Shown here in pieces: positions 3,730 through 45,877 of a DNA stretch of 64,000 nt (its first letter is position 1; the number at the start of each line of letters is the position of its first letter). Below the pieces are notes generated by a model. That model searched no databases. It was given only the letters and a program-made list of their open reading frames with translations, and was not told the DNA's origin. The position numbers and the translations under genes are program-made. This stretch comes from Candidatus Wirthbacteria bacterium (GTDB lineage: Bacteria; Patescibacteriota; CG2-30-54-11), in the NCBI GenBank assembly GCA_903889905.1, contig CAISZI010000053.1, forward strand, positions 74,599 to 138,598. Reading direction: 5' to 3'.

Positions 3730-3860
3730 GAGGTTGATGATTTGATGGCGGAGCCAGCCAAAGCAGAGAATGCGGGTAGGGGAGCCCTACTTCGTTTTTT
3801 GTCTTACCGGCGGAGCCATCCGTAGCTCGTCGCTTCATAGCCGACCCTCTCGAGCGAAGG

Positions 3861-3882
3861 ATGGTGGAGTTGAGGGGAGTCG
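3861..3882. repeat. 22-bp direct repeat (atggtggagttgaggggagtcg) identical to 13398..13419, i.e. the 3' end of tRNA-Ala. Distal att-like boundary of the island
   Basis: Exact 22/22 match to the antisense of the tRNA-Ala 3' acceptor/T-arm region. The flanking sequence does not fold as a tRNA. Confidence 0.8.
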
Positions 3883-4291
3883 TATACAAGTCCCTGCGAA
3901 GCGTTCTGACGGTGAGCAGCTGAACGCAGTAATGACGATGTTGCTACCTACTGATACCGCAGGCTCCCTTCCGATTCGCTGACGAATCTACAGGGATCGA
4001 AATGGATAAGTACCTCTAAACGCGATGACTTGTTAAGATGTACTTTATAAGTTTCACTAAGTTCGAAGACTCACTAAGTTCAGCTTTATGGTGGATATAG
4101 GGTAACAATACTTGAACTTTTTAGCAAGATGATGACTAGGTGGCAGCAGGTAAACCGTTGGAATGGCTTCATGACGGACTTTCTGGAGCACAACAGGGGA
4201 ACAGAAGGGCTTGTGATAGATAAGCTGCGTTTATAGAAGGGGGGCGGTGTGCTATGGTGGGCAGGGTACTCACATACTCAAAGGGGGCAAT

Positions 4292-4600
4292 ATGGACAAA
4301 TCAGACAAGGAAGAACTGAAAGCGGTAGTAGCGTACATCTATGCTCTGGTGAACAAGGTCGAAAGCAGTGATTCTCTTAGCAAAAGCCCGAGAATCAAGA
4401 AAGATATGGCAAATTTGGCAATTGCTTTACGCCATTTCGTTGATAGTGTCGAGAACGATAAAGCTAAACAGGCAGAAACAGGGGAGCAGTCAGAGCAAGG
4501 GCAACCTGCCAAGCTGAAGCCAGGTCAGGCGTATGATGAATGGGGAGAAGTGGTTCAACTATCATTAGCCCACAAGCAGACAGGTATTACGAACAAATAA
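4292..4600 (+). CDS. Small hypothetical protein (102 aa) inside the island
   Basis: ORF with RBS aaggggg 7 nt upstream of the ATG at 4292. The track ORF started at 4247. Confidence 0.5.
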   Translation: MDKSDKEELKAVVAYIYALVNKVESSDSLSKSPRIKKDMANLAIALRHFVDSVENDKAKQAETGEQSEQGQPAKLKPGQAYDEWGEVVQLSLAHKQTGITNK

Positions 4601-5122
4601 GCCCGAAGGCGCATGAACTTTAGGCAATGTTTAGTATTATTAACTATCTTTGAATGTTAGTAATTATTAACTATCTGTTGCAGGGATGAGGCACTAGGGG
4701 TGGGTGCTATTTCTGCGACAGCATTCTCTTTGCCCTATAGGCTCTTTTTTTGTATTAGTGCATTAGGCAAGAAAGGGGAAGGACATACGAGCAAAGGTTG
4801 GATGGGGGGTAGCATGTTCTGACGAGAAATGTCAAGGTTTTGCCCGCTACTCCCGCTGTGGAGGATACCTTTCTGTGTAATTAGGAGGAATAACGGATTT
4901 GTCCTCTTAATTGGGTATCAATATCGAGATGGGAGCAAAAAAACCGCAGTATTCGATTCCCTTGTTAGAATTGAGTAAGAGGAATAACCATACAGGACGC
5001 TCTCCGCGAAACATTGTTTATAATTATGAACTTGTCTGTTTGCTTAGTACAAAACAACTAAACTATAATGACTGAGTGTTTATGCCTGTAGCGTCTTGTA
5101 ATGCAATGAAAAAGGATGGAAT

Positions 5123-7027
5123 ATGACCACTTTTCCCAAAATGGACGGTACTTCATATAGCCCACAACAGGAGCTATTTGAGCTATTGCAGGCTCGTTTC
5201 CCCGATGTATTCACCGAGGGGAAAATAGACCCTATCAGGCTCAAGCGGTCTTTGGGTGAACAGGTCAATGTAGATAGCGAGCGCTATGGTTTGAATTGGG
5301 CAGGTAAAAGCGATTGTTACCGCCATATTCAGGAATCAACTACAGCGACCCTCAAACCAGTGCGAAAAGAGTCTGTAGACTTCGACACTACCCAGAACTT
5401 GTTCATCGAGGGAGACAATCTCGAAGTGCTCAAAGTGTTGCAGAAGTCCTACTATGGCAAGGTCAAAATGATTTATATTGACCCGCCATACAACACAGGA
5501 AGTGATAGTTTTATCTATCCAGACAGGTTCCAAGAGTCCCAAGACGATTATCTAAAGAGAATCGGTGAAAAAGACGAATCGGGTAATTTGATGCGAGATG
5601 GTATGTTTCAGAAAAATAGCCGAGATAATGGGCATTACCATTCCAATTGGCTATCAATGATGTACCCACGATTGTTTTTGGCGAGGAATCTATTGCGGGA
5701 AGATGGGGTTATCTTTGTCAGTATTGATAATAATGAAGTCCATAATTTACGGTTGGTAATGGATGAAATATTCGGGGCAGAGAATTTTATAGACTGCATT
5801 ATATGGAAAAAAAGGTATGGCGGTGGTTCAAAGGAAAAATATCTAGTGTCTTTACATGAATACATTTTATTTTATTCCAAAGATGTTAATCATTTAGACC
5901 CACTGTTTGTTCACCAAGACGAAGCAAATATCGCAAGATATTACAAATACAAAGATGAAAAATTTGAAACGAGAGGTCCCTATCGTACTCACCCATTGGA
6001 AGCGACAAAAAGCATGGGGGATAGGAAGAATTTGATTTATCCCATACCAGCACCAGACAAAACGTATATTAACCCTCAGCGTCAATGGCTTTGGAAGAAA
6101 GAAAGGGTAGAACAAGCATTAAAGAATAATGAGCTTGAGTTTATCAAAACCGACAAAGGATACTCAGTTCATACAAAACAGTATTGGCGTGATGAATCCG
6201 GTGAAGTAAGACAGAGTAAAATGTTTTCAATTATCGACAATGTTTATACTCAATCTGGTACAAATGAAATAATCGAGCTATTTGGGAATGCTCAAATTTT
6301 TTCTTTCCCAAAACCTACAGCACTTCTTAAACCCTTGATTCAGCTAACAACAGATTCGGTACAAGAGGAGATAGTTTTAGATTTTTTTGCCGGTTCAGGA
6401 ACCACTGCCCATGCGATTATTGCCCAGAACTATGAGGATGGTGGTAATAGAAAATACATTCTAGTGCAGCTTCCAGAGGCTTGCGCAGACGATAGCGAAG
6501 CATTTAAAAAAGGCTATAAAACCATTGCAGATGTTGCAAAAGAACGTATCAGGAGGGTTGGAAAAGAAATAGTAAAAAAGAAACAATCCAAACTAAATCT
6601 TGATGGAAAAAAGATTGATGTTGGATTCAAAGTGCTTGAATTGGAAGATAGTAATTTCAAGGTCTGGCGAGGGGATGTAGAGTCAGCTGAAGTTTTACTT
6701 GAGCAAATGGAAGCCTTTGTCGATAACACGAATCCTGATGCTATCAAAGAAAGCGTGCTTTATGAACTTATCTTGAAAAGTGGGCTAGATTTGAACGTGG
6801 CTGTTGAGAAAAGGGATATAGGGGGTAAGGCTGTATTTGTGTTGAATGGGGGTAAATTGGCGGTCTGCTTAGAAGATGAGCTCAACCAGGCGGTTGTCGA
6901 TGCTGTTGTCTCTATCAAGCCAGAAAAAGTGCTGTGCTTGGATAAGTCATTTGGTGGTAATGACCAGCTCAAGACTAATGCCATGCTTCAGATGGAACAG
7001 GCAAAGATAGACTTCAAGGTGGTGTAG
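5123..7027 (+). CDS. mod: Type III restriction-modification Mod subunit (beta-class N6-adenine DNA methyltransferase)
   Basis: Motif IV IYIDPPYN lies N-terminal to motif I LDFFAGSGTT. This is the beta-class order typical of Type III Mod. Size 634 aa. Confidence 0.85.
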   Translation: MTTFPKMDGTSYSPQQELFELLQARFPDVFTEGKIDPIRLKRSLGEQVNVDSERYGLNWAGKSDCYRHIQESTTATLKPVRKESVDFDTTQNLFIEGDNLEVLKVLQKSYYGKVKMIYIDPPYNTGSDSFIYPDRFQESQDDYLKRIGEKDESGNLMRDGMFQKNSRDNGHYHSNWLSMMYPRLFLARNLLREDGVIFVSIDNNEVHNLRLVMDEIFGAENFIDCIIWKKRYGGGSKEKYLVSLHEYILFYSKDVNHLDPLFVHQDEANIARYYKYKDEKFETRGPYRTHPLEATKSMGDRKNLIYPIPAPDKTYINPQRQWLWKKERVEQALKNNELEFIKTDKGYSVHTKQYWRDESGEVRQSKMFSIIDNVYTQSGTNEIIELFGNAQIFSFPKPTALLKPLIQLTTDSVQEEIVLDFFAGSGTTAHAIIAQNYEDGGNRKYILVQLPEACADDSEAFKKGYKTIADVAKERIRRVGKEIVKKKQSKLNLDGKKIDVGFKVLELEDSNFKVWRGDVESAEVLLEQMEAFVDNTNPDAIKESVLYELILKSGLDLNVAVEKRDIGGKAVFVLNGGKLAVCLEDELNQAVVDAVVSIKPEKVLCLDKSFGGNDQLKTNAMLQMEQAKIDFKVV

Positions 7028-7030
7028 TAT

Positions 7031-7816
7031 ATGCAAAAGAGTCCATACCTACAAAACTACTATCGTGAAATTGAATTTTCACTATGGAATCGAAAGATAA
7101 ACCATGCAGTCGCTTCTATCACAAGTCTAAAACGAGACAAGAGCAAGAAAAAGTATTTTATTGAGCTGTACTCAACATATCTTCAGCTGATTGAGATTTT
7201 TTGTATCAATGTGTTCGTAATCACTGAGAACGATTTGTGGAGCAACGTTTTTTTGAGTAACCGTCAACTAGCTGAAAAGATACAAAACAGATTTTATCAG
7301 GCTGAAAGTAGTCGTTTTGACAAGAAGTTCAGTACTTTTTTCCTAGAACATTGGGTATTTGGCGTTGAAGATAAGACTGCTATCCGAGACTTTGCTGGGA
7401 AAATAGAGTTGTATTTGGATATTATCAAAGAGAGCCTTTTTGATTATTCCGAAGATAAACATTTTCTGAATTCATACAAACACGGCTTTCGAGTTCAAGC
7501 GGGAGGGAAGAGTACTTTTGGGATAGGAATAGGTACATCTCAAGAAGTTCATAAATTAGGTGATTTCAACGCAAGTGTGACGTATTTTCACAAAAAAGAG
7601 GCGGTGATTTTCGAAAGGCAGATTTGTTTCAACTGGGAACGGATTTACCAAAAAACTTCATTTTTGTTGAATATGCTCCAAAACATCAAAACAGTGTATA
7701 CAGCAAAGTCGAAACAAGTAATAGACATCAATACATTGTTCATTGTTGACTCACAACAGTTTAACCAATTCAGTGGGTATTTTCGTACTAACACCCCAAT
7801 TTTCGAGATAAAATAG
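7031..7816 (+). CDS. Uncharacterised 261-aa protein inserted between mod and res
   Basis: ORF starts 4 nt after the mod stop and ends 1 nt before the res start. This suggests translational coupling in one operon. AT-richer than its neighbours. No known motif recognised. Confidence 0.6.
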   Translation: MQKSPYLQNYYREIEFSLWNRKINHAVASITSLKRDKSKKKYFIELYSTYLQLIEIFCINVFVITENDLWSNVFLSNRQLAEKIQNRFYQAESSRFDKKFSTFFLEHWVFGVEDKTAIRDFAGKIELYLDIIKESLFDYSEDKHFLNSYKHGFRVQAGGKSTFGIGIGTSQEVHKLGDFNASVTYFHKKEAVIFERQICFNWERIYQKTSFLLNMLQNIKTVYTAKSKQVIDINTLFIVDSQQFNQFSGYFRTNTPIFEIK

Positions 7817-7817
7817 A

Positions 7818-10520
7818 GTGGTAATGAAACTTCAATTCGATGCTAGCCAGCAATATCAGCTGGACGCCATCAATTCCATAGTAGACATTTTCAAAGGGCA
7901 GCCTTTGAGCAAGGGTGTTTTTGAGCTTGAGGTAAAGCGTCCTGACGACGAGCTTCAGCTGGGTGGCGAGTTTGTTGTGGGCAATAAGCTCATGCTCGAG
8001 CCGGATACCATCATTGCAAATCTTCATGAAATACAAACTCGGAATGAACTGACAATATCCGAAGTGGCAACTGGAGCAACATTTCCTGCAAGTTTTCCCT
8101 TGGATTTCAGCCGTCGTTTACAATATGGAATGAACTTTTCCATAGAAATGGAAACAGGAACAGGTAAAACCTATGTGTATCTGCGAACTATCCACGAGCT
8201 GTACCAGAAGTATGGTTTCAAAAAGTTTGTTATCGTCGTGCCTAGCATTGCCATCAGGGAAGGAGTGCTCAAGAATCTAGAGATAACAGCCGAGCACTTT
8301 GCCATGCTGTATGAAAACCCAGCACTTAATTTTGAGGTCTATGACCCCAAAAAGAGGAATCTGCTCAAAACCTTTGCTACCAACAACACCTTGCAGATTC
8401 TAGTGATAAACATTGATTCTTTTGCCAAATACAGCGACGAGAAAGCTGGCAAAAACATCATTTACCAAAACAGCGACTGGGGTATCCCGATTGAATACCT
8501 CAAGGCTGTCAGCCCTATCGTCATCGTCGATGAACCGCAAAACATGGAAACCGATATTCGCAAAAAGGCTATAGAGAATCTCAACCCGCTTTGCACTCTG
8601 CGATATTCGGCAACACACAAAAATCTGTACAACGTGGTGTATACCCTAGACCCTGTCAAAGCCTATGATTTGGGCTTGGTCAAAAAGATAGAGGTGGACT
8701 CCGTCATAACCGAGGATAACCACAATGCTGCCCTGATAGAAGTGGTTTCTTTTCAAACCACTTCAAAGTCAGTTAGTGCCAAGCTCAAAATTGAAGTTGT
8801 AGATTCGGAAAGCGTAGGGAAAAAAGCGGTAACAGTAAGGCTCGGTGACGACTTGTACCGACTTTCCAACCAGAGGGAAGTGTACAAAGATGGCTTTATA
8901 GTCAATGACATAGGCTTTCAGGCTAAATCCATTACGTTCAGCAATGGTCTAGTGTTGTATGAAGGGCAGTCTCAAGGGGGCATGACCGATGCGATAATGA
9001 AGTATCAGATTCGGAAAACCATCGAGAATCATGTTGAGAAGGAAGCCAAACTCAGAGGCAAGGGAATCAAAGTCTTGTCTCTATTCTTCATCGACCGTGT
9101 AGCGAACTATCGAGAATATACGGAGGGGAAGCCCAACAAAGGCAAGTTTGCCCTCTGGTTCGAGGAACTATACAAAGAAATAGCCCGAAACCCCAAATAT
9201 CAGGAATTGATGGTTCATTCTGCTGATTCGGTTCATAACGGATACTTTTCTCAAGACAAACAGGGTGGCTGGAAGGATACCAAGGGAACAACCCAGGCTG
9301 ATGATGATACCTACGCCATAATCATGAAAGAAAAAGAAAAACTGCTTTCGATGGAAGAACCTTTAAAGTTTATCTTTTCCCATTCCGCACTCAAAGAAGG
9401 CTGGGACAACCCTAATGTTTTTCAAATCTGTACCCTGAGAGAAATTACTTCAGAGGGGGAAAAGAGACAAACCATAGGACGTGGCTTGAGGCTTTCTGTA
9501 AATCAGGACGGAAAGCGGGTTTTTGATGAGAACATCAACATTCTTACCGTCATTGCCAATGATAGCTATGAGGACTTTGCCAAGTCATTGCAGACCGAAA
9601 TTGAGAGAGAATGTGGAGTCAGCTTTTCAGGCAGGGTAAGGGATAAGCGGAAAAGAAAGCAGATGCAATTGAGAAAGGGCTATCAGCTTGATGAAAATTT
9701 CATCAGCCTTTGGGATAGAATCAAGGTCAAAACCAGATTCCAGGTCAGCTATGATTCCAATGAGTTGATTCGACTGGTTGCCAACGAACTAAAGACGGCA
9801 GCGATAACTGCACCCAAAATCAAAAATATCAAGGTCAAGGTTGACCTAACCAGGCATGGTATCGATACAGGGGTAGTAACCGTCAATGAAAGGACGGAAA
9901 AGTTCAAGGGAAGCGTTCCTGACGTGCTAGGTGACATCCAAAACAAGACGAGGCTGACCAAGGACACGATTCTCAAGATTATCAAGGCTTCGGGTAGGCT
10001 GGCAGACATTTTCATCAACCCGCAGCAATTCATGGACATAACCTCCCATATCATCAACTCAACACTGACCAAGATGATGGTTGATGGTGTGAAGTACGAA
10101 AAAATAGCCAGTGAAGTATGGGAAATGCAACTATTCGAGAATCAGGAGCTGGAAAGCTATCTGGAGAATCTAGTAGAGGTCAAAAAGGTAGAGAAGACCC
10201 TATATAACTATGTACCAGTAGACCATCAAGTAGAGTCTGAGTTTGCCAAAGACCTGGATTCCAGAGAAGACGTGAAGTTCTATTTCAAGCTGCCCTCATG
10301 GTTCACTATCCAAACGCCACTAGGGACATACAATCCTGACTGGGCAATTGTGTTTGAAAAGGATAAAAGGGTTTATTTCGTGGCTGAAACCAAGTCAAAA
10401 GGACAAGAGCTCCGCCCATCAGAACAAATGAAGATTGACTGCGGGCGTAAGCACTTTGAGGAATTTGAAGATGTGACCTATATGGCACCTATCACAAAAG
10501 TCAGCGATATTGTGATTTGA
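7818..10520 (+). CDS. res: Type III restriction enzyme Res subunit (SF2 helicase plus C-terminal PD-(D/E)xK endonuclease)
   Basis: Walker A METGTGKTY. Motif II VIVDEPQN. C-terminal PDWAIV...FVAETK nuclease motif. The probable true start is the ATG at 7824. Confidence 0.85.
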   Translation: MVMKLQFDASQQYQLDAINSIVDIFKGQPLSKGVFELEVKRPDDELQLGGEFVVGNKLMLEPDTIIANLHEIQTRNELTISEVATGATFPASFPLDFSRRLQYGMNFSIEMETGTGKTYVYLRTIHELYQKYGFKKFVIVVPSIAIREGVLKNLEITAEHFAMLYENPALNFEVYDPKKRNLLKTFATNNTLQILVINIDSFAKYSDEKAGKNIIYQNSDWGIPIEYLKAVSPIVIVDEPQNMETDIRKKAIENLNPLCTLRYSATHKNLYNVVYTLDPVKAYDLGLVKKIEVDSVITEDNHNAALIEVVSFQTTSKSVSAKLKIEVVDSESVGKKAVTVRLGDDLYRLSNQREVYKDGFIVNDIGFQAKSITFSNGLVLYEGQSQGGMTDAIMKYQIRKTIENHVEKEAKLRGKGIKVLSLFFIDRVANYREYTEGKPNKGKFALWFEELYKEIARNPKYQELMVHSADSVHNGYFSQDKQGGWKDTKGTTQADDDTYAIIMKEKEKLLSMEEPLKFIFSHSALKEGWDNPNVFQICTLREITSEGEKRQTIGRGLRLSVNQDGKRVFDENINILTVIANDSYEDFAKSLQTEIERECGVSFSGRVRDKRKRKQMQLRKGYQLDENFISLWDRIKVKTRFQVSYDSNELIRLVANELKTAAITAPKIKNIKVKVDLTRHGIDTGVVTVNERTEKFKGSVPDVLGDIQNKTRLTKDTILKIIKASGRLADIFINPQQFMDITSHIINSTLTKMMVDGVKYEKIASEVWEMQLFENQELESYLENLVEVKKVEKTLYNYVPVDHQVESEFAKDLDSREDVKFYFKLPSWFTIQTPLGTYNPDWAIVFEKDKRVYFVAETKSKGQELRPSEQMKIDCGRKHFEEFEDVTYMAPITKVSDIVI

Positions 10521-10559
10521 ACAAAGTTCATAATGATTAACTTTTAGAGATAGAACTAT

Positions 10560-11498
10560 ATGAAAACAACGCTGGCACGACTAAATCGAGTAGAATTGCG
10601 TGAAGTATGGGAGCATGAAGCTCTTGATTTTACTCGCTGGCTTGCTCAGCAGGACAATCTTGATGCTTTAAGCGAAGAAATCGGTGTAGACATCAAATTG
10701 ATAAAAACAGAAGCGAACGTAGGAAAGTACAGCGTAGATATACTTGCCGAAGAAGAAGCATCAGGGAGAAAAATAATCATTGAAAATCAACTTGAGGATA
10801 CAAACCACGACCATCTTGGGAAAATCATTACTTATGCGTCTGGGTACGATGCGGAAATCATTATTTGGATAGTTCGTGATGTTCGTGATGAGCATCAGAA
10901 AGCAATTGAATGGTTAAACGAGCATACTGATGAAAATATAAGCTTTTTCCTTATTAAGATTGAACTTTGGCAGATACAAGGTTCTCCTCCCGCACCAAAA
11001 TTTGAAATCATGGTTAGCCCTAACGAATGGGCAAAAGCTATCAAAACTAGCCCGACAAATGGCGAGCTTACGAATACTAAACTTCAACAACTTGAATTCT
11101 GGAACAAATTTAAAAATTTTGTTCGAGAAAATGATGCCAGCATACGGCTTCAAACGCCACGTCCTCAACACTGGTACGATGTGAGCATGGGAAGCTCGGA
11201 AGCACATATTGCTCTTACAGTTAATACTCGCGAGAATCTTATCGGCTGCGAATTATACATAAGCCGAAACAAAGAACTATATAAATACCTTCTCGAGCGG
11301 AAAGATGAAATTGAACAGAACATCGGAGAGCATGCCGAATGGGTAGATGCAGCAGTTGCTTCAAGGATTAAACATTCCAAAACGGTATCCAGCGTGTTTC
11401 AACAAACTGAAGCAGCAGAATACTTCAAGTGGTTATACGACAAGACAGTTTTGTTTCAGAATGTATTTAGAAAGTACATTCAGGAATTCAAACAGTAG
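10560..11498 (+). CDS. DUF4268-like protein, putative PD-(D/E)xK nuclease-fold protein commonly found next to RM systems
   Basis: Pattern DILAEEE...IIIENQLEDTNHDHLGKIITY resembles the DUF4268 family as I remember it. Family assignment is from memory and not verified. Confidence 0.5.
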   Translation: MKTTLARLNRVELREVWEHEALDFTRWLAQQDNLDALSEEIGVDIKLIKTEANVGKYSVDILAEEEASGRKIIIENQLEDTNHDHLGKIITYASGYDAEIIIWIVRDVRDEHQKAIEWLNEHTDENISFFLIKIELWQIQGSPPAPKFEIMVSPNEWAKAIKTSPTNGELTNTKLQQLEFWNKFKNFVRENDASIRLQTPRPQHWYDVSMGSSEAHIALTVNTRENLIGCELYISRNKELYKYLLERKDEIEQNIGEHAEWVDAAVASRIKHSKTVSSVFQQTEAAEYFKWLYDKTVLFQNVFRKYIQEFKQ

Positions 11499-11770
11499 CA
11501 CCTAAAGGCTTTTCTGTAGAAATCTTATGGAATCAGGTTAGGCTGTCCGTATGTCTGGTATGTAGATGTGCCCTTTATGCTCTCTGAGAGCCGTTCTAAT
11601 ACCATTCACCACGGCTCGTCGAGGAGAAATATCAGAACCATCGCGATGCTGCGTGTCGTCCTGTACCATCCTGAAATGTATTGATAAACGTTGAACGATG
11701 ACCAAGATACGCCATCAGAGGTATAATGCTGTTGTCAGCAAGATAGCTCTTAAAGTGGGGGTCTATACCC

Positions 11771-13456
11771 ATGCCAAGTCAGAAACCCAACCTTCTTGAA
11801 ATACTACGAGAACAACAAGGGCATAATGCAATAAAGAAGGACGAGAAGGACTTCAAGTACATAATCTATGCTCGTAAATCGACAGACAGCAAGGAGCATC
11901 AAGAAAAGTCACTGCCTGACCAAGTAAAAGCCTGTAAACTGCTTGCTGATAGCAAAGAATTGCATTACTTGAAGTCAGAAATTATTGAAGAGAAGGAATC
12001 AGCAAGGGAGCCAGATATACGCCCGATGTTTCGACGTATGATGGATGACATCAAATCTGGCAAGCATGATGGCATCATTACATGGCATCCTGACAGGCTA
12101 GCACGCAATATGAAGGAGGCTGGTGAAATTATCGACCTGCTAGACAAGAAAATCATCCAAGACATCAAATTTGCAAGTGTAACCTTTGACAACGATTCAA
12201 ACGGCAAGATGATGCTAGGTATTTCTTTTGTCCTGTCGAAACAGTACTCCGACAAGCTAAGCACTGACATCAGGCGAGGGATTGAGAACAGGGTAGCAGA
12301 GGGGCAGTACCTGAGCAGAACCAAGCATGGATACTACAAGGACAGGTATAATTTTCTACGCCCTGATGGTAATAACTTTGCTTTGATGAAGCAGGCTTGG
12401 CAGATGCGGTTGAATGGGCAGAAAATTGAGGATATAGCTGCCTTTTTGAATAAACAAGGGTATCAGCAGGCAGGCGAGGCTGGTAAAACTCATACACCCT
12501 TTACATGGAATGTAAAGAAACTGGCAGAGCGCTTTCATGACACTATCTATGCTGGTGTGTTGAAATACGGAAAGGATTCAGTCAGCCTGATAGAGGAATA
12601 CGACTTTATTCCGATGGTTACTGAAGAAGAATTTTTAGCGATAAACAAGACGCAATATATAGGTAATCCCTTCCGGTCTCGGTATAAGGTGGGTTCCAGG
12701 AAACAGACGAGAGCTGATTTTCTTCGGAGGATGGTGTTTTGCAGCTCCTGCAAGAAACCGATGGCGACAGGCATTACTTCAAAGAAAGACCAAAAGGGCG
12801 ACGAGACAAATTATTTCTATTTCAGATGCGACAACAAGAAGTGCAAGCAAAAGGGTAAATCAGTCCGTGGTAAAGTCCTTGAAGATTTTGTCATTGATTT
12901 TTTGGACAAGAACAAGATAGCTTCAAAATCTATCTATGAAACGTACGTGCGAGATATGGAGAATCATCTACGCCAAGAGCAACAAGCAATTCTTGGGCAG
13001 GAGAAAACACTAGCCAAGAAGCTTGTACAGGCTAAGGAGCTTATGAAAAAGACCAAGGAGCTCATGCTAGACAACAAAGATGCTAGCCTAAGGGAAGAGC
13101 TTACTGGTGACTACAAACAGTATCAAGGGGAGGCTGAGGGCTTGGATGATGAGCTACAGGCTATCCAGAGGGTGAAAAAAGAGGGGAAAGATGAAATAAT
13201 GGACTACAAAACGTTTCTTGAACTTATCGAGAAAGTGCCCGAGATACTTAGACAAACGACCACTTTGAAGGGGAAGGATAGTATCATCAGAGAAATCTTC
13301 ATGAACTTTACAGTAGACCGCAGGAAAGTCTTGTCGTATAAGCTAAAACCGCCCTTTGATGGGTTCATCAAGAGCGGTTTCAACCAGACTTTCACCTATG
13401 GTGGAGTTGAGGGGAGTCGAACCCCTGACCTCTGCAATGCGAATGCAGCGCTCTAG
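11771..13456 (+). CDS. Large serine recombinase (resolvase N-terminal domain plus zinc-ribbon and coiled-coil C-terminal domain)
   Basis: YIIYARKSTDSKEHQ...DRLARN catalytic resolvase motifs. C-terminal Cys cluster CSSCKK...RCDNKKCKQKG. The ORF 3' end overlaps the antisense strand of tRNA-Ala. Confidence 0.85.
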   Translation: MPSQKPNLLEILREQQGHNAIKKDEKDFKYIIYARKSTDSKEHQEKSLPDQVKACKLLADSKELHYLKSEIIEEKESAREPDIRPMFRRMMDDIKSGKHDGIITWHPDRLARNMKEAGEIIDLLDKKIIQDIKFASVTFDNDSNGKMMLGISFVLSKQYSDKLSTDIRRGIENRVAEGQYLSRTKHGYYKDRYNFLRPDGNNFALMKQAWQMRLNGQKIEDIAAFLNKQGYQQAGEAGKTHTPFTWNVKKLAERFHDTIYAGVLKYGKDSVSLIEEYDFIPMVTEEEFLAINKTQYIGNPFRSRYKVGSRKQTRADFLRRMVFCSSCKKPMATGITSKKDQKGDETNYFYFRCDNKKCKQKGKSVRGKVLEDFVIDFLDKNKIASKSIYETYVRDMENHLRQEQQAILGQEKTLAKKLVQAKELMKKTKELMLDNKDASLREELTGDYKQYQGEAEGLDDELQAIQRVKKEGKDEIMDYKTFLELIEKVPEILRQTTTLKGKDSIIREIFMNFTVDRRKVLSYKLKPPFDGFIKSGFNQTFTYGGVEGSRTPDLCNANAAL

Positions 13457-13475
13457 CCAACTGAGCTACAACCCC
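13399..13475 (-). tRNA. tRNA-Ala(CGC), 77 nt including CCA
   Basis: Manual fold gives acceptor GGGGTTG/CAACTCC with a G3:U70 pair, D-arm GCTC/GAGC, anticodon loop TTCGCAT, T-arm AGGGG-TTCGACT-CCCCT, and discriminator A followed by CCA. Confidence 0.85.
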
Positions 13476-20270: not shown

Positions 20271-20285
20271 TTGAGGGCTTTTTTT

Positions 20286-21089
20286 ATGGGCGAAAACAAT
20301 CGTTTGAACATGTCCGAAGGTGAGTCTGGCAATTTGTCGACAACAGCTGATGTTGAATTTACTGATGCCGATGGTGGTTTGGATGAAGTTGTGGACAGAG
20401 TGGAAGCGGAATTATTACCGTCTACTGAACCATCCGGGCCGCAGCTGGGGCGAGAAGAATTGACAGTGTTGGTCAGCGATATCATCTCCAATCAACCCGC
20501 CGGCGAGAAAGTAATTAGTTTTCAAGAACTAATGCGCCATGCTAGAAGATGGTTATCGAGGCATCTGGCAAGTCAGAGCGGTATTGATACACTACAATCA
20601 TCTGACAAGCAACCTGACCAGGAACGACGGGGAACTAGGAGGATTGAAGGACCGAGCAAGTATGTGCTGCAATTTGTGCAAGATTTGAACCAACATGTCC
20701 ATGACTTCGAACACAAGATTGTCCCTGTTTGGTTGAAAATCAAAGACACTTTTTCACCAGCTGCGCTACAGGGACAGAGTGAAATGCTGGTTGCCCAGGC
20801 AATGACCCAGTTACGTGCAATGGTTATCTTTGAGTTAGACAACTTCAATACAGACACTAATTGGTTGGAACTTTTTGATCTCAAAGAACCCTTGATGGAC
20901 AGGATCTTGAATTCGATGCAGGCATGGGTTAGAACACAAATAGATAAAGAAGCAGCCAGTAAGGACCAACAGTCCGGAAGTCGCAGGCCGCAAGTTGCAG
21001 GTTTGTTTCGTGACAGCTGGAGTTTGGTGCGAGATGCCGTTCGCGATTCAAAATCAGCCTCTGTAAATCTTGGTAAAGCGACGGGATAA
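20286..21089 (+). CDS. Hypothetical acidic protein (267 aa)
   Basis: ORF directly downstream of the radical SAM gene. No motifs recognised. Confidence 0.5.
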   Translation: MGENNRLNMSEGESGNLSTTADVEFTDADGGLDEVVDRVEAELLPSTEPSGPQLGREELTVLVSDIISNQPAGEKVISFQELMRHARRWLSRHLASQSGIDTLQSSDKQPDQERRGTRRIEGPSKYVLQFVQDLNQHVHDFEHKIVPVWLKIKDTFSPAALQGQSEMLVAQAMTQLRAMVIFELDNFNTDTNWLELFDLKEPLMDRILNSMQAWVRTQIDKEAASKDQQSGSRRPQVAGLFRDSWSLVRDAVRDSKSASVNLGKATG

Positions 21090-21201
21090 AGTCCAGAGTA
21101 GTTATGTAATGATGTGGATTGTCTGCCTCTATGCAAGTTGAGGCAGTATTAGTACAATGTTTTCGTTGACCAAAAACGATAGGATTTACGCTCTCATAGC
21201 T

Positions 21202-21258
21202 TCCTCCTTCGCTTTGAAGCTTCCGCCGTCGCATGGCTAGGGCGGACAGGACGAAGGA
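21202..21258. repeat. ~57-bp conserved structured motif. The second copy is at 26525..26580. Outer stem tccttcg/cgaagga, inner hairpin with loop tcgcatggct
   Basis: About 80% identity. The inner stem is CCGCC/GGCGG in copy A and CCACC/GGTGG in copy B, a compensatory G:C to A:T change. Confidence 0.55.
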
Positions 21259-21306
21259 CAGGCAGTGGTTTTGTAGGTGTACCAGCTTGTAGGTGAAAGC
21301 ATCACG

Positions 21307-21360
21307 CCCTCATAGCTCAGTGGATAGAGCGGTGGTTTCCTAAACCATGCGCGCAGGTTT
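21307..21360 (+). pseudogene. Truncated copy of tRNA-Arg(CCT), 5' 54 nt only
   Basis: Identical to nt 1-54 of the complete tRNA-Arg at 21464. Diverges inside the T-loop into a 9-bp hairpin followed by TATAAT. Confidence 0.75.
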
Positions 21361-21390
21361 ATCCCGTTTGCAACGGGATACCCTATAATG
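21361..21390 (+). promoter_or_regulatory. Perfect 9-bp-stem hairpin (tatcccgtt-tgc-aacgggata) followed by a TATAAT -10-like box, upstream of tRNA-Arg
   Basis: Read directly. Candidate promoter or processing element for the tRNA. Confidence 0.4.
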
Positions 21391-21463
21391 GAAATGGCGA
21401 TTCCATCACAGGTTAGAGTGTAATTTAAGTTATTCAGTCGCACATTGAGATGATTGATTTACG

Positions 21464-21538
21464 CCCTCATAGCTCAGTGGATAGAGCGGTGGTTTCCTAA
21501 ACCATGCGCGCAGGTTCGATTCCTGCTGGGGGCGCCAA
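21464..21538 (+). tRNA. tRNA-Arg(CCT)
   Basis: Manual fold gives acceptor GCCCTCA/TGGGGGC, D-arm GCTC-AGTGGATA-GAGC, anticodon stem GTGGT/ACCAT with loop TTCCTAA, T-arm GCAGG-TTCGATT-CCTGC, and discriminator G followed by CCA. Confidence 0.85.
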
Positions 21539-21674
21539 ACTACGCCAAGGCTTCGTTTGGCAGGCCATAAAGTTGAAATCGGTGAGTCAACGAGCTTAGT
21601 GAAACTTATCCCTGAAAGCCTGTCATTAGGCTGGAAGGGATCCTTCGCGAATCATTTTTCTTCAAAGGTCCAAT

Positions 21675-26501: not shown

Positions 26502-26628
26502 GAGACGGAAACGAAGTTTATAATCCTCCTTCGCCCAGGCACTTCCACCTTCGCATGGCTTCGGTGGACAGGACGGAGGACTTAACGAAGGGAATCGAGT
26601 TTTAAAGTTATAAAGTGGGAAGAGGGGA

Positions 26629-27459
26629 ATGGGGAAGCGTGTTTTGGGGTTGGCACTACTGACGGTAGGGTTGTTTGCGGGTTGTTCGACGCAAGCGGAG
26701 AACAATCCCCGGAATTCTGCGACTGCAGTTGATCAGAGTGTAAATTCGACCACGGCCAAACCCAAACCAGCGGAAGTCTGGCGTTTCGTGGTATTGGGCG
26801 ATACGCATGGTGATACCGACCAATTTCCGGCGCTCTTGAAGCAAATTCAGGCCGACAAACCCGAATTCGTGATCGATGTCGGTGATTTGACCAAAGTGGG
26901 TGGAAGTGACGAGTTCAAAATTGCCAAAGCGCAGTTTGATGGTTTGGGTATACCTTATGACGCTGTTCCCGGCGATCACGATATTGTGACGGGCAAGGGG
27001 TTAAAGTATTTCACACCAGCGTTTGGTAAGGATTACCAGTCGTTCATGGCACATGGGTTGCAGTTTGTCCTGGTTGACAATGCTGACCTGATTCGCGGCA
27101 TGACAACTCAGCAGTGGACGTTTTTGGATCAGCTTCCCAGCAACCTGACGACCTTTGTCCTGCTGCACCATCCTCCCAGTCATCCGTTGTTCAAAATGCA
27201 TACCATGCAGGAAACCGCTCAAGGTGCCATCGATGAAAAACGGCTGCAGACTTGGATACTCAAGCACAACGTGAGACAAGTTGTGGCCGGTGAAATGCAC
27301 TTGTTTCAGCAATATGCGCTGGAGGGCGGGATTCCGCTCACGGTCGTGGGGGCTGCCGGAAAGTATGACAATCCGGGCGAAGACCAGTACGTGCTGGTGC
27401 AGTTTTACACTGACCAGACCTGGACTATCAAACAAAAAGTCCTGGGTCAGTCACCTTGA
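26629..27459 (+). CDS. Lipoprotein metallophosphoesterase (calcineurin-like)
   Basis: Lipobox LFAGC. LGDTHGD and GDHD phosphoesterase motifs. Confidence 0.75.
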   Translation: MGKRVLGLALLTVGLFAGCSTQAENNPRNSATAVDQSVNSTTAKPKPAEVWRFVVLGDTHGDTDQFPALLKQIQADKPEFVIDVGDLTKVGGSDEFKIAKAQFDGLGIPYDAVPGDHDIVTGKGLKYFTPAFGKDYQSFMAHGLQFVLVDNADLIRGMTTQQWTFLDQLPSNLTTFVLLHHPPSHPLFKMHTMQETAQGAIDEKRLQTWILKHNVRQVVAGEMHLFQQYALEGGIPLTVVGAAGKYDNPGEDQYVLVQFYTDQTWTIKQKVLGQSP

Positions 27460-45512: not shown

Positions 45513-45592
45513 GGGGATTCCTTGGGGATTCCTTGGGGGTCAAAATAAGGATTGCGTTAGTTGTTTTCGACAATTTGGATTATTACCTGCTC

Positions 45593-45762
45593 CGTCCTGA
45601 GGACAGGACTGCAGGGTTAAGTAGGACTAAGCTCACAAGCTTTGTTGAGTCATTTGTCCCATTCCGTCCTGAGGACAGGACGACAGGGTTAAGTAGGACT
45701 AAGCTCACAAGCTTTGTTGAGTCATTTGTCCCATTCCGTCCTGAGGACAGGACTACAGGGAC
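45593..45762. repeat. 72-bp tandem repeat, about 2.4 copies, with 'ggacaggac' core. Directly abuts tRNA-Pro
   Basis: Unit starts at 45593, 45665 and 45737. Differences between units are limited to a few bases. Confidence 0.8.
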
Positions 45763-45801: not shown

Positions 45802-45877
45802 TGGTCGGGGCGACAGGATTCGAACCTGCGGCCTCATGGTCCCAAACCACGCGCGCTACCAACTGCGCTACGCCCCG
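45802..45877 (-). tRNA. tRNA-Pro(TGG)
   Basis: Manual fold gives acceptor CGGGGCG/CGCCCCG, anticodon loop TTTGGGA, T-loop TTCGAAT, and discriminator A followed by CCA. Confidence 0.8.

Follow-up and report, generated by a model that had tools for sequence, protein, structure and literature searches.

Two dispersed 57-nt composite hairpin modules, designated c1 and c2, were analyzed in a 64,000-nt stretch of the Candidatus Wirthbacteria contig CAISZI010000053.1 (hereafter the window). Both modules truly belong to a family of small hairpin repeats present in several bacterial phyla. We lean towards the view that c1 and c2 are solo modules, similar to repetitive extragenic palindromes (REPs) or miniature inverted-repeat transposable elements (MITEs), of a cassette system that is associated with tRNA ends and carries a GIY-YIG nuclease gene, and that they are not free-standing small RNAs. 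This view draws on the family membership of both copies, the covariation in the stems, the association of family hairpins with tRNA ends and GIY-YIG genes, and the insertion-like contexts of the modules, from which we infer the mobility of c1 and c2 and any action of the nuclease on the hairpins.

Nested architecture of c1 and c2

In each module, one hairpin is nested within the junction between the loop and the 3′ arm of another, and the outer arms form terminal inverted repeats of 6-7 nt, as expected for a MITE. The two copies of ~57 nt had been described in an earlier sequence-only reading of the window, and both exist, although c2 starts at 26524 and not at 26525. The outer stem of c1 pairs TCCTTCG (21205-21211) with CGAAGGA (21252-21258), exactly as that reading had proposed. 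In c2, the same register is available as TCCTTCG/CGGAGGA at the cost of one U:G pair; otherwise TCCTCC (26524-26529) pairs with GGAGGA (26575-26580).

The inner hairpins are 25 nt each and lie in intergenic DNA. That of c1 (21222-21246) consists of TCCGCC (21222-21227), the loop GTCGCATGGCTAG and GGCGGA (21241-21246), and that of c2 (26544-26568) of TCCACC (26544-26549), the loop TTCGCATGGCTTC and GGTGGA (26563-26568). The loop core named previously, TCGCATGGCT, is indeed common to both, whereas the true loop is longer, 13 nt, and reads (G/T)TCGCATGGCT(AG/TC). The first loop-like stretch of both modules follows TTCGC-N6-(G/A)CTTC (TTCGCTTTGAAGCTTC in c1), and the tail CAGGAC occurs 3′ of both inner hairpins. 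Direct reading of the two copies confirmed that their inner stems differ by a G:C to A:T double substitution, a genuine compensatory pair. Folding energies of c1 and c2 were only slightly more favorable than those of shuffled sequences on either strand (z -1.8 to -3.3), so the case for structure rests on covariation and not on energy.

The modules are separated by 5.3 kb. A 34-nt degenerate pattern matched the c1 and c2 sites alone (0.00 matches expected from 100 shuffles), and neither nhmmer nor blastn found a third close copy in the window.

A hairpin family maintained by compensatory changes

Members of the family have a stem of 5-7 bp, free in sequence but compensated, and a loop with conserved ends, TTCGC...GCT(A/T)C, followed in most members by a CAGG tail. 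In the predicted fold, the loop ends form a GC mini-helix together with a UUC/UUC internal loop. Covariation was counted in 18 distinct hairpins over the six pairs nearest the loop, with the arms cut at the loop borders and bulged members omitted. Standard pairs occupied 93.5% of pair cells as compared with 65.4% in shuffles, and none of 500 shuffles reached 93.5%. Double changes were present in five of the six pairs and filled 31 cells against 9.1 expected, and controls with a slid register gave 34-63% pairing. Only one G:U pair was encountered among 108 cells, and the covariation therefore does not tell selection on RNA from selection on DNA. The earlier proposal of selection for the hairpin is strengthened by these relatives; both the further copies and the covariation that it had suggested seeking with a covariance model were found.

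An initial model based on c1 and c2 produced a weak match directly after the tRNA-Arg(CCT) gene, where a third hairpin, c3, was then recognized by eye. Its 5′ arm takes in the CCA end of this tRNA, its stem is unlike those of c1 and c2 in sequence yet fully paired, and its loop is 1 nt off that of the tRNA- and tmRNA-end hairpins at three loci described below (L040, L047 and L057). A structural pattern composed after c3 had been seen (5-bp stem, loop CGC-N2-5-GCT, tail CA[AG]G) matched exactly c1, c2 and c3, with 0.04 matches expected.

A second covariance model, R2, was trained on 13 hairpins that all came from other genomes, with no sequence from the window, and the window was then scanned unfiltered. 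Its four best matches were c3, c2, c1 and a fourth hairpin, c4 (Table 1), and the fifth-best fell to 13.4 bits. R2 therefore recovers both copies noted before plus two unseen tRNA-end hairpins. The latter two, c3 and c4, lie exactly at tRNA CCA ends, as at the training loci; c4 begins at the CCA of a 25-nt 3′ fragment of tRNA-Ala (3862-3886). When applied to 39 loci, R2 matched all of those judged true relatives apart from two with bulged stems, L001 and L009, and found a second site in L010. Among the loci judged to be chance matches, only L033 was matched.

Table 1. Hairpins and tRNA copies of the window, with their matches to covariance model R2, and the independent loci that carry the ~80-aa GIY-YIG gene
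Feature	Coordinates	Strand	Basis or context	R2 rank	R2 match	R2 score
c1, 57-nt composite hairpin module	21202..21258	+	sequence reading	3	21219-21250	22.3 bits, E 0.003
c2, 57-nt composite hairpin module	26524..26580	+	sequence reading	2	26541-26572	28.9 bits, E 7e-5
c3, simple hairpin: GCCAAAC / TACGCCAAGGCTTC / GTTTGGC / AGG	21534..21564	+	model R2, structural pattern scan	1	21532-21564	29.4 bits, E 5e-5
c4: CCATCC / TTCGC...37-nt loop...GCTAC / GGATGG	3816..3864	-	model R2	4	3812-3867, - strand	20.7 bits, E 0.008
Intact tRNA-Arg(CCT)	21463..21537	+	c3 starts on CCA end
First partial tRNA-Arg copy, GATTTACGCTCTCATAGCT (7-nt upstream flank and nt 1-12)	21183..21201	+	18/19 identical to 21456-21474
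Second partial tRNA-Arg copy, nt 1-54	21306..21359	+	27.4-bit tRNA match
L035			upstream gene tRNA-Arg CCT
L038			upstream gene tRNA-Arg TCG
L039			upstream gene tRNA-Met
L040			upstream gene tRNA-Gly
L047 (Saccharibacteria)			upstream gene tmRNA
L057 (Bryobacteraceae)			upstream gene tmRNA
L058/59 (Imperialibacter)			upstream gene tRNA-Pro

Association with tRNA and tmRNA ends and a small GIY-YIG nuclease

Homologues of an 80-aa GIY-YIG protein encoded at L035 were gathered together with their contigs, which gave seven independent loci. At all seven, a tRNA or tmRNA gene is followed on the same strand, after 100-250 nt, by the gene for a GIY-YIG protein of ~80 aa, which is bracketed by family hairpins. 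In its profile, the nuclease comes closest to SLX1, a structure-specific nuclease, and to the UPF0213 proteins. L035 belongs to a relative of the window organism with the same H+-PPase/HtpX neighborhood, and its cassette is found at the same tRNA-Arg(CCT). Three family hairpins occur there within 680 nt after the tRNA; two of them flank the open reading frame (ORF) for the nuclease, and the upstream one provides its Shine-Dalgarno (SD) sequence, GGAGGA.

At five of the seven loci, the CCA end forms the start of a hairpin in which the 3′ arm changes to match the bases after CCA (CCATAC/GTATGG, CCAGGC/GCCTGG, CCACGC/GCGTGG, CCATCCTAC/GTAGGATTGG and CCATCC/GGCTGG). The loop of these hairpins is TTCGCC...GGCT(T/A)C, represented by TTCGCCAAGGCTTC in L040, L047 and L057. 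An inverted unit is located just before the GIY-YIG ORF, for instance GCCCTCC-ATAGCCTCGTGCGAC-GGAGGGC, with a loop of the reverse-complement type of the c1 loop. Because the 3′ arm of this unit serves as the SD in three loci, a G.A (T.C) mismatch recurs at the stem center; the same mismatch is present in copies of the family from an Akkermansiaceae genome and from L005. The forward and inverted units of L057 form a single hairpin of 24 bp (z -6.0), which resembles a REPIN.

Among strains of Imperialibacter, the number of hairpin-flanked cassettes at one and the same tRNA-Pro varies between one and two. Of two assemblies that differ there (L058, 693-1490; L059, 1069-1560), one holds two tandem GIY-YIG cassettes and the other a single cassette and a partial leader. 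The same hairpin, with its T-run, delimits every one of these cassettes. A scan of viral contigs found no relatives of the nuclease.

Insertion-like contexts of the modules

The modules had been placed just downstream of plus-strand genes by the sequence-only reading. This holds for c2, which is found 22 nt past the stop codon of HtpX, an M48-type protease, and 48 nt ahead of the start of a metallophosphoesterase gene. By contrast, c1 lies inside a decayed partial tRNA-Arg copy and starts at the base directly after nt 12 of that copy. On its 3′ side, CAG (21259-21261) and GCAGTGGTTT (21262-21271) resemble tRNA nt 13-15 and 25-34, an inferred tail with a chance probability of ~0.05 that is suggestive only. 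On this comparison c1 reads as a clean 57-nt insertion between nt 12 and 13 of a decaying tandem tRNA-Arg copy.

The junction of HtpX with DUF5656 lacks c2 in the two nearest available relatives, L014 and L035 (67% and 66% identical to the window in HtpX), where the gap is 11-12 nt. In a marine contig, L005, the module is contained in an insertion of ~134 nt (2617-2750) that splits the ORF of an IS6/IS240 transposase (profile positions 2-98 and 102-138). In a metagenome-assembled genome (MAG) of Akkermansiaceae, the module is found with two alternative flanks on its left and two on its right. Both orientations relative to neighboring genes were observed for the module in other genomes.

Several further features were noted around these sites. 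The three tRNA-Arg(CCT) copies are arranged in tandem at 21183-21537, with spacings of 116 and 157 nt, which suggests that this tRNA has undergone local duplication or recombination more than once; the second partial copy is followed by an unrelated 9-bp hairpin, TATCCCGTT/AACGGGATA. Upstream of c1, an ORF of 272 aa (20271-21089) is an ORFan with no Pfam domain and with only a self-match among 5.8 billion clustered proteins. The metallophosphoesterase gene (26629-27459), with c2, separates HtpX from DUF5656 in the window, and no motif remnant was found after this inserted gene. On the minus strand of L005, a group II intron (223-2032; Rfam matches to D1-D4 and domain V) adjoins the transposase gene.

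Relatives in other samples

Sequence collections were scanned with an exact pattern for the loop and 3′ arm, which matched at least 13 metagenome loci and at least 20 genome loci. Matches were kept only when identity extended beyond the pattern or several copies were present. The relatives retained are L001, L005, L009, L010, L012, L031 and five copies in the Akkermansiaceae MAG. For instance, L012 is identical to c2 at 29 of 31 positions. L001, which comes from another sample, has the nested architecture of c1 and c2 and also holds a 16-mer, ACTACGCCAAGGCTTC, that is present in the window at the tRNA-Arg end. In L031, GCGAAGGCTGTCCGCC-GTAGCCATGCGA adjoins a tRNA-Ala and has 16 nt in common with the element preceding the GIY-YIG gene of L035. 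L016 (nusB), L033 (potA) and L002/3/8/13 were dismissed as coding or chance matches. A stricter genome pattern ending in GGACAGGAC gave no match and was judged too strict, and blastn against plasmids and phages and scans of viral contigs were negative for the DNA motif.

Tyrosine recombinase genes were found upstream of the motif in L012 and L019 only. In L012, the module lies ~40 nt after the end of an integron-integrase-like gene, and in L019, one of the Akkermansiaceae loci, 146 nt after a gene for an 829-aa tyrosine recombinase. In the same MAG, three loci (L019, 5880-6080; L020; L023) have in common a repeat of ~200 nt downstream of the module, with long compensated stems, e.g. GCAGGGGGA...TCCCCCTGC, differing inner sequence and no Rfam match. 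The sequence matched by the hairpin model in L033 (5811-5842, 30 bits) is in frame within the coding region of a potA-like ABC ATPase of a Planctomycetia MAG, and is due either to chance or to a palindrome inserted in frame, in the manner of Rickettsia palindromic elements.

Proposed cassette system

In the cassette system that we favor, one unit forms a hairpin incorporating the CCA end of a tRNA or tmRNA, and an inverted unit precedes the ~80-aa GIY-YIG gene, often carrying or masking its SD. The hairpins would serve as cis elements in a small system of mobile cassettes docking at tRNA ends, and c1 and c2 would be non-autonomous derivatives inserted elsewhere in the fashion of REPs or MITEs. 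Compensatory changes would arise in the stems because the hairpin itself is what gets recognized or needed. In transcripts, the hairpin probably has a second role, as a 3′-end barrier or a mask of the ribosome-binding site (RBS).

A more specific proposal is offered tentatively, as one that may well prove wrong. The hairpins might be the recognition elements of an undescribed minimal mobile element in which a nuclease related to SLX1, consisting of the GIY-YIG catalytic domain only, recognizes the conserved loop ends in a manner similar to RAYT proteins and REPs. Such a nuclease would dock its cassette at tRNA and tmRNA CCA ends, thereby borrowing their promoters, in Saccharibacteria, Acidobacteriota and Bacteroidota, and would spread non-autonomous solo units, c1 and c2 among them. 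Neither Rfam nor the literature searched on GIY-YIG with tRNA, tmRNA or REP, on COG2827/UPF0213 and on the motif sequences contained a description of such an arrangement.

If the link holds, a tRNA or tmRNA end combined with one hairpin that pairs with CCA, another that bears the RBS and a minimal GIY-YIG nuclease would constitute a compact and very widespread selfish module. Its existence would account for recurrent 'ghost' hairpins in intergenic DNA of uncultured bacteria and for near-identical loops in hairpins of unrelated phyla, and it would give the uncharacterized nucleases of the UPF0213/COG2827 type a natural partner and substrate. In genome annotation, such sites would be flagged as repeat elements rather than as small RNA genes or terminators. 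On their own, c1 and c2 are an ordinary dispersed hairpin repeat.

Several points weigh against the cassette interpretation. The window contains no GIY-YIG gene, pseudogene or remnant by tblastn or by a six-frame profile search, and the putative link between nuclease and hairpins is an association of loci, which are few (n=7), though independent. For the covariation count we cut the arms ourselves where they meet the loop, and some of the hairpins were selected and bounded by visual inspection. The genome pattern, with 18 specified bases over 1.2e12 positions, is expected to match ~17 times by chance and at least 20 matches were found; because this count is near the chance expectation, most single matches in the collections carry no meaning. 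One strong model match, that of L033, falls inside the potA coding region. For c1, the insertion depends on 12 nt and a 9/10 match, and a target-site duplication is absent, with tRNA nt 12 to its left and nt 13 to its right. At c2, a 7-nt direct repeat, AACGAAG, is displaced from the ends by 7 and 3 nt and may be due to chance. Dispersal was judged from this 64-kb stretch alone, in which four family units (c1-c4) are present.

Alternative explanations

In the main alternative, the hairpin would serve the host as an RNA 3′-end element, i.e. a terminator that lacks a U-tract, a barrier to 3′ exonucleases, or a tRNA/tmRNA 3′-processing signal that pairs with CCA, so that c1 and c2 would mark the ends of upstream transcripts. 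The seven solo copies with clear gene context (c1, c2, L001, L005, L009, L012 and L019) all run in the direction of the flanking upstream gene, a further point against the cassette interpretation that suits an RNA role at least equally. The forward units after tRNA or tmRNA genes (c3, c4, L037, two in L038, L039, L040, L047 and L057) are likewise all in the sense orientation, the arm pairing with CCA+N3-5 covaries with the bases after CCA, and the Imperialibacter hairpin is followed by a T-run, like a working terminator. Nevertheless, c1-c4 have no U-tract, units of opposite orientation occupy fixed places (before the GIY-YIG start, and all three units in L035), c2 is not kept at the orthologous junction, and insertions are found within a transposase ORF and a tRNA copy. 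Nor does the single G:U pair among the 108 cells reveal the G:U-versus-A:C asymmetry that would mark a transcribed strand. We regard the RNA 3′-end account as rather unlikely; the two accounts are not exclusive, since REPs do both. Regarding the terminator or processing element suggested by the earlier reading, the canonical intrinsic form was rejected, since consensus scans gave no site at c1, c2 or c3 and no T-run occurs within 8 nt of the stems, while a looser 3′-end or processing hairpin is possible.

Quite unlikely, in our estimate, is that c1 and c2 are static scars, left by former GIY-YIG cassettes or by duplication and recombination of tRNA-Arg, that neither move independently nor have any present function. 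The position of c1 amid three tandem partial and complete tRNA-Arg copies would fit such an origin, as would the resemblance of the minus strands of c1 and c2 to the pre-GIY-YIG element, including GCGAAGGAGGA, with no ORF following, and an element-like remnant, CGAAGTAGGGCTCC, after c4 that has no gene. Decaying scars 5.3 kb apart would not be expected to retain equal length, both stems and a compensatory change, the nested architecture recurs in L001, and no tRNA adjoins c2.

A stand-alone structured RNA, either a small regulatory RNA or a self-cleaving ribozyme such as one resembling that of hepatitis delta virus (HDV), appears highly improbable, and with it the free-standing small RNA of the earlier reading, which is left unsupported by the lack of Rfam matches, of conserved placement and of a single orientation relative to genes elsewhere. 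What speaks for such an RNA is the combination of a conserved loop, variable stems and several copies per genome, as in small ribozymes, the likeness of AUGGCUAGGGCGGA to the HDV J4/2-P2 segment AUGGCUAAGGGA, and a text match of the loop sequence in a paper on an HDV ribozyme. That match, however, is to an engineered P4 oligonucleotide. Threading through the nested double pseudoknot of HDV (P1, P1.1, P2, P3 and P4, with the catalytic C in J4/2) fails, since P3, L3, the 3′ strand of P1 and P4 are required between the P2 strands and just 13-19 nt are available there. Rfam searches at the gathering threshold and at E<=10 with c1, c2 and eight related loci returned nothing at the motif, including no HDV-like, hammerhead, twister, pistol or hatchet match, and no promoter or terminator frames the unit.

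Other identities were examined and dismissed. An integron attC site is not supported, as the core sites (RYYYAAC ... GTTRRRY) are lacking, with no GTTRRRY partner at c1 or c2 and no adjoining integrase. A minus-strand mini-ORF (MRR[WR]K...EGG) has no SD before its ATG, ends differently in the two copies and is not kept in L001 or L012. A conserved cis-regulator of HtpX was rejected on the absence of c2 at the junction in L014 and L035.

Comparison with known repeat and mobile elements

The family shares many features with the REP/REPIN-RAYT systems of Enterobacteria and Pseudomonas. Both comprise short, extragenic, imperfect palindromes whose hairpin is kept by compensatory changes, occur as single units, as inverted doublets forming long hairpins (here in L057) and as mosaics, and are linked with a single small gene of nuclease type, which has the repeats on both sides. 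As RNA, both could stabilize or end upstream transcripts. However, no GTAG/CTAC or CGTC tag flanks the c1-c4 stems, CTAC being found only inside some loops, and the partner gene encodes a GIY-YIG protein similar to SLX1 and UPF0213, whereas RAYT is a Y1 (IS200-like) transposase. Unlike REPs, which are lineage-specific, the family is strongly tied to the tRNA or tmRNA CCA end and has loop ends conserved across phyla. REPs reach tens to hundreds of copies per genome; four units of the family were counted in the 64 kb of the window.

SegB of phage T4 is a free-standing GIY-YIG homing endonuclease gene in a tRNA gene cluster (PMC2330249). The loci described here resemble homing genes of the Seg type in having a small GIY-YIG gene among or next to tRNA genes, variation in presence and copy number between strains, and a start region within a hairpin able to mask the ribosome-binding site. 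In contrast, Seg proteins are ~200 aa long with an added DNA-binding domain, while the nuclease of the family has ~80 aa and the catalytic domain only. Seg genes belong to phages and have no conserved flanking hairpin repeats, whereas our loci are on bacterial chromosomes, with no relatives in viral contigs.

With MITEs and other small palindromic insertions (Correia, RUP and Rickettsia palindromic elements), c1 and c2 have in common the 57-nt unit, the terminal inverted repeats of 6-7 nt and the hairpin. Its insertion sites likewise comprise intergenic DNA, a tRNA pseudo-copy and a transposase ORF, and the in-frame look-alike in the coding region of L033 is reminiscent of the Rickettsia type. 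Dissimilarities include the lack of a clear target-site duplication and of any autonomous insertion sequence or transposase seen with matching ends, with blastn against plasmids and phages being empty, and the conservation of the loop and hairpin geometry instead of the termini. Intrinsic (Rho-independent) terminators are similar to the family in being GC-rich stem-loops just after genes, with a T-run in Imperialibacter; they differ in the U-tract that c1-c4 lack, in the usual loop of 3-8 nt as compared with 13-37 nt here, and in the conservation of the family loop sequence across phyla.

Other features of the window

Downstream of a tRNA-Pro gene (45802-45877, minus strand), a 72-nt tandem repeat of 2.4 copies (45591-45760, 96% matches) was observed. 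Its unit holds GGACAGGAC, a 9-mer of the c1/c2 tail, within a tight hairpin, CTGTCC-TCA-GGACGG. The CCA end of this tRNA-Pro begins a small hairpin, CCAA-ATGACGAC-TTGG-CAAG, that has the layout of the family with a loop that is not the family's.

An island of ~9.5 kb appears to be integrated in tRNA-Ala(CGC) (13399-13475, minus strand), spanning 3862-13475. The 25-nt copy of the tRNA-Ala 3′ end that carries c4 (3862-3886, minus strand) represents its far end. Among the island genes are those for a large serine recombinase (11771-13456), which overlaps the tRNA, a DNA methylase (5123-7027) and a helicase/endonuclease similar to type III restriction Res proteins (7818-10520).

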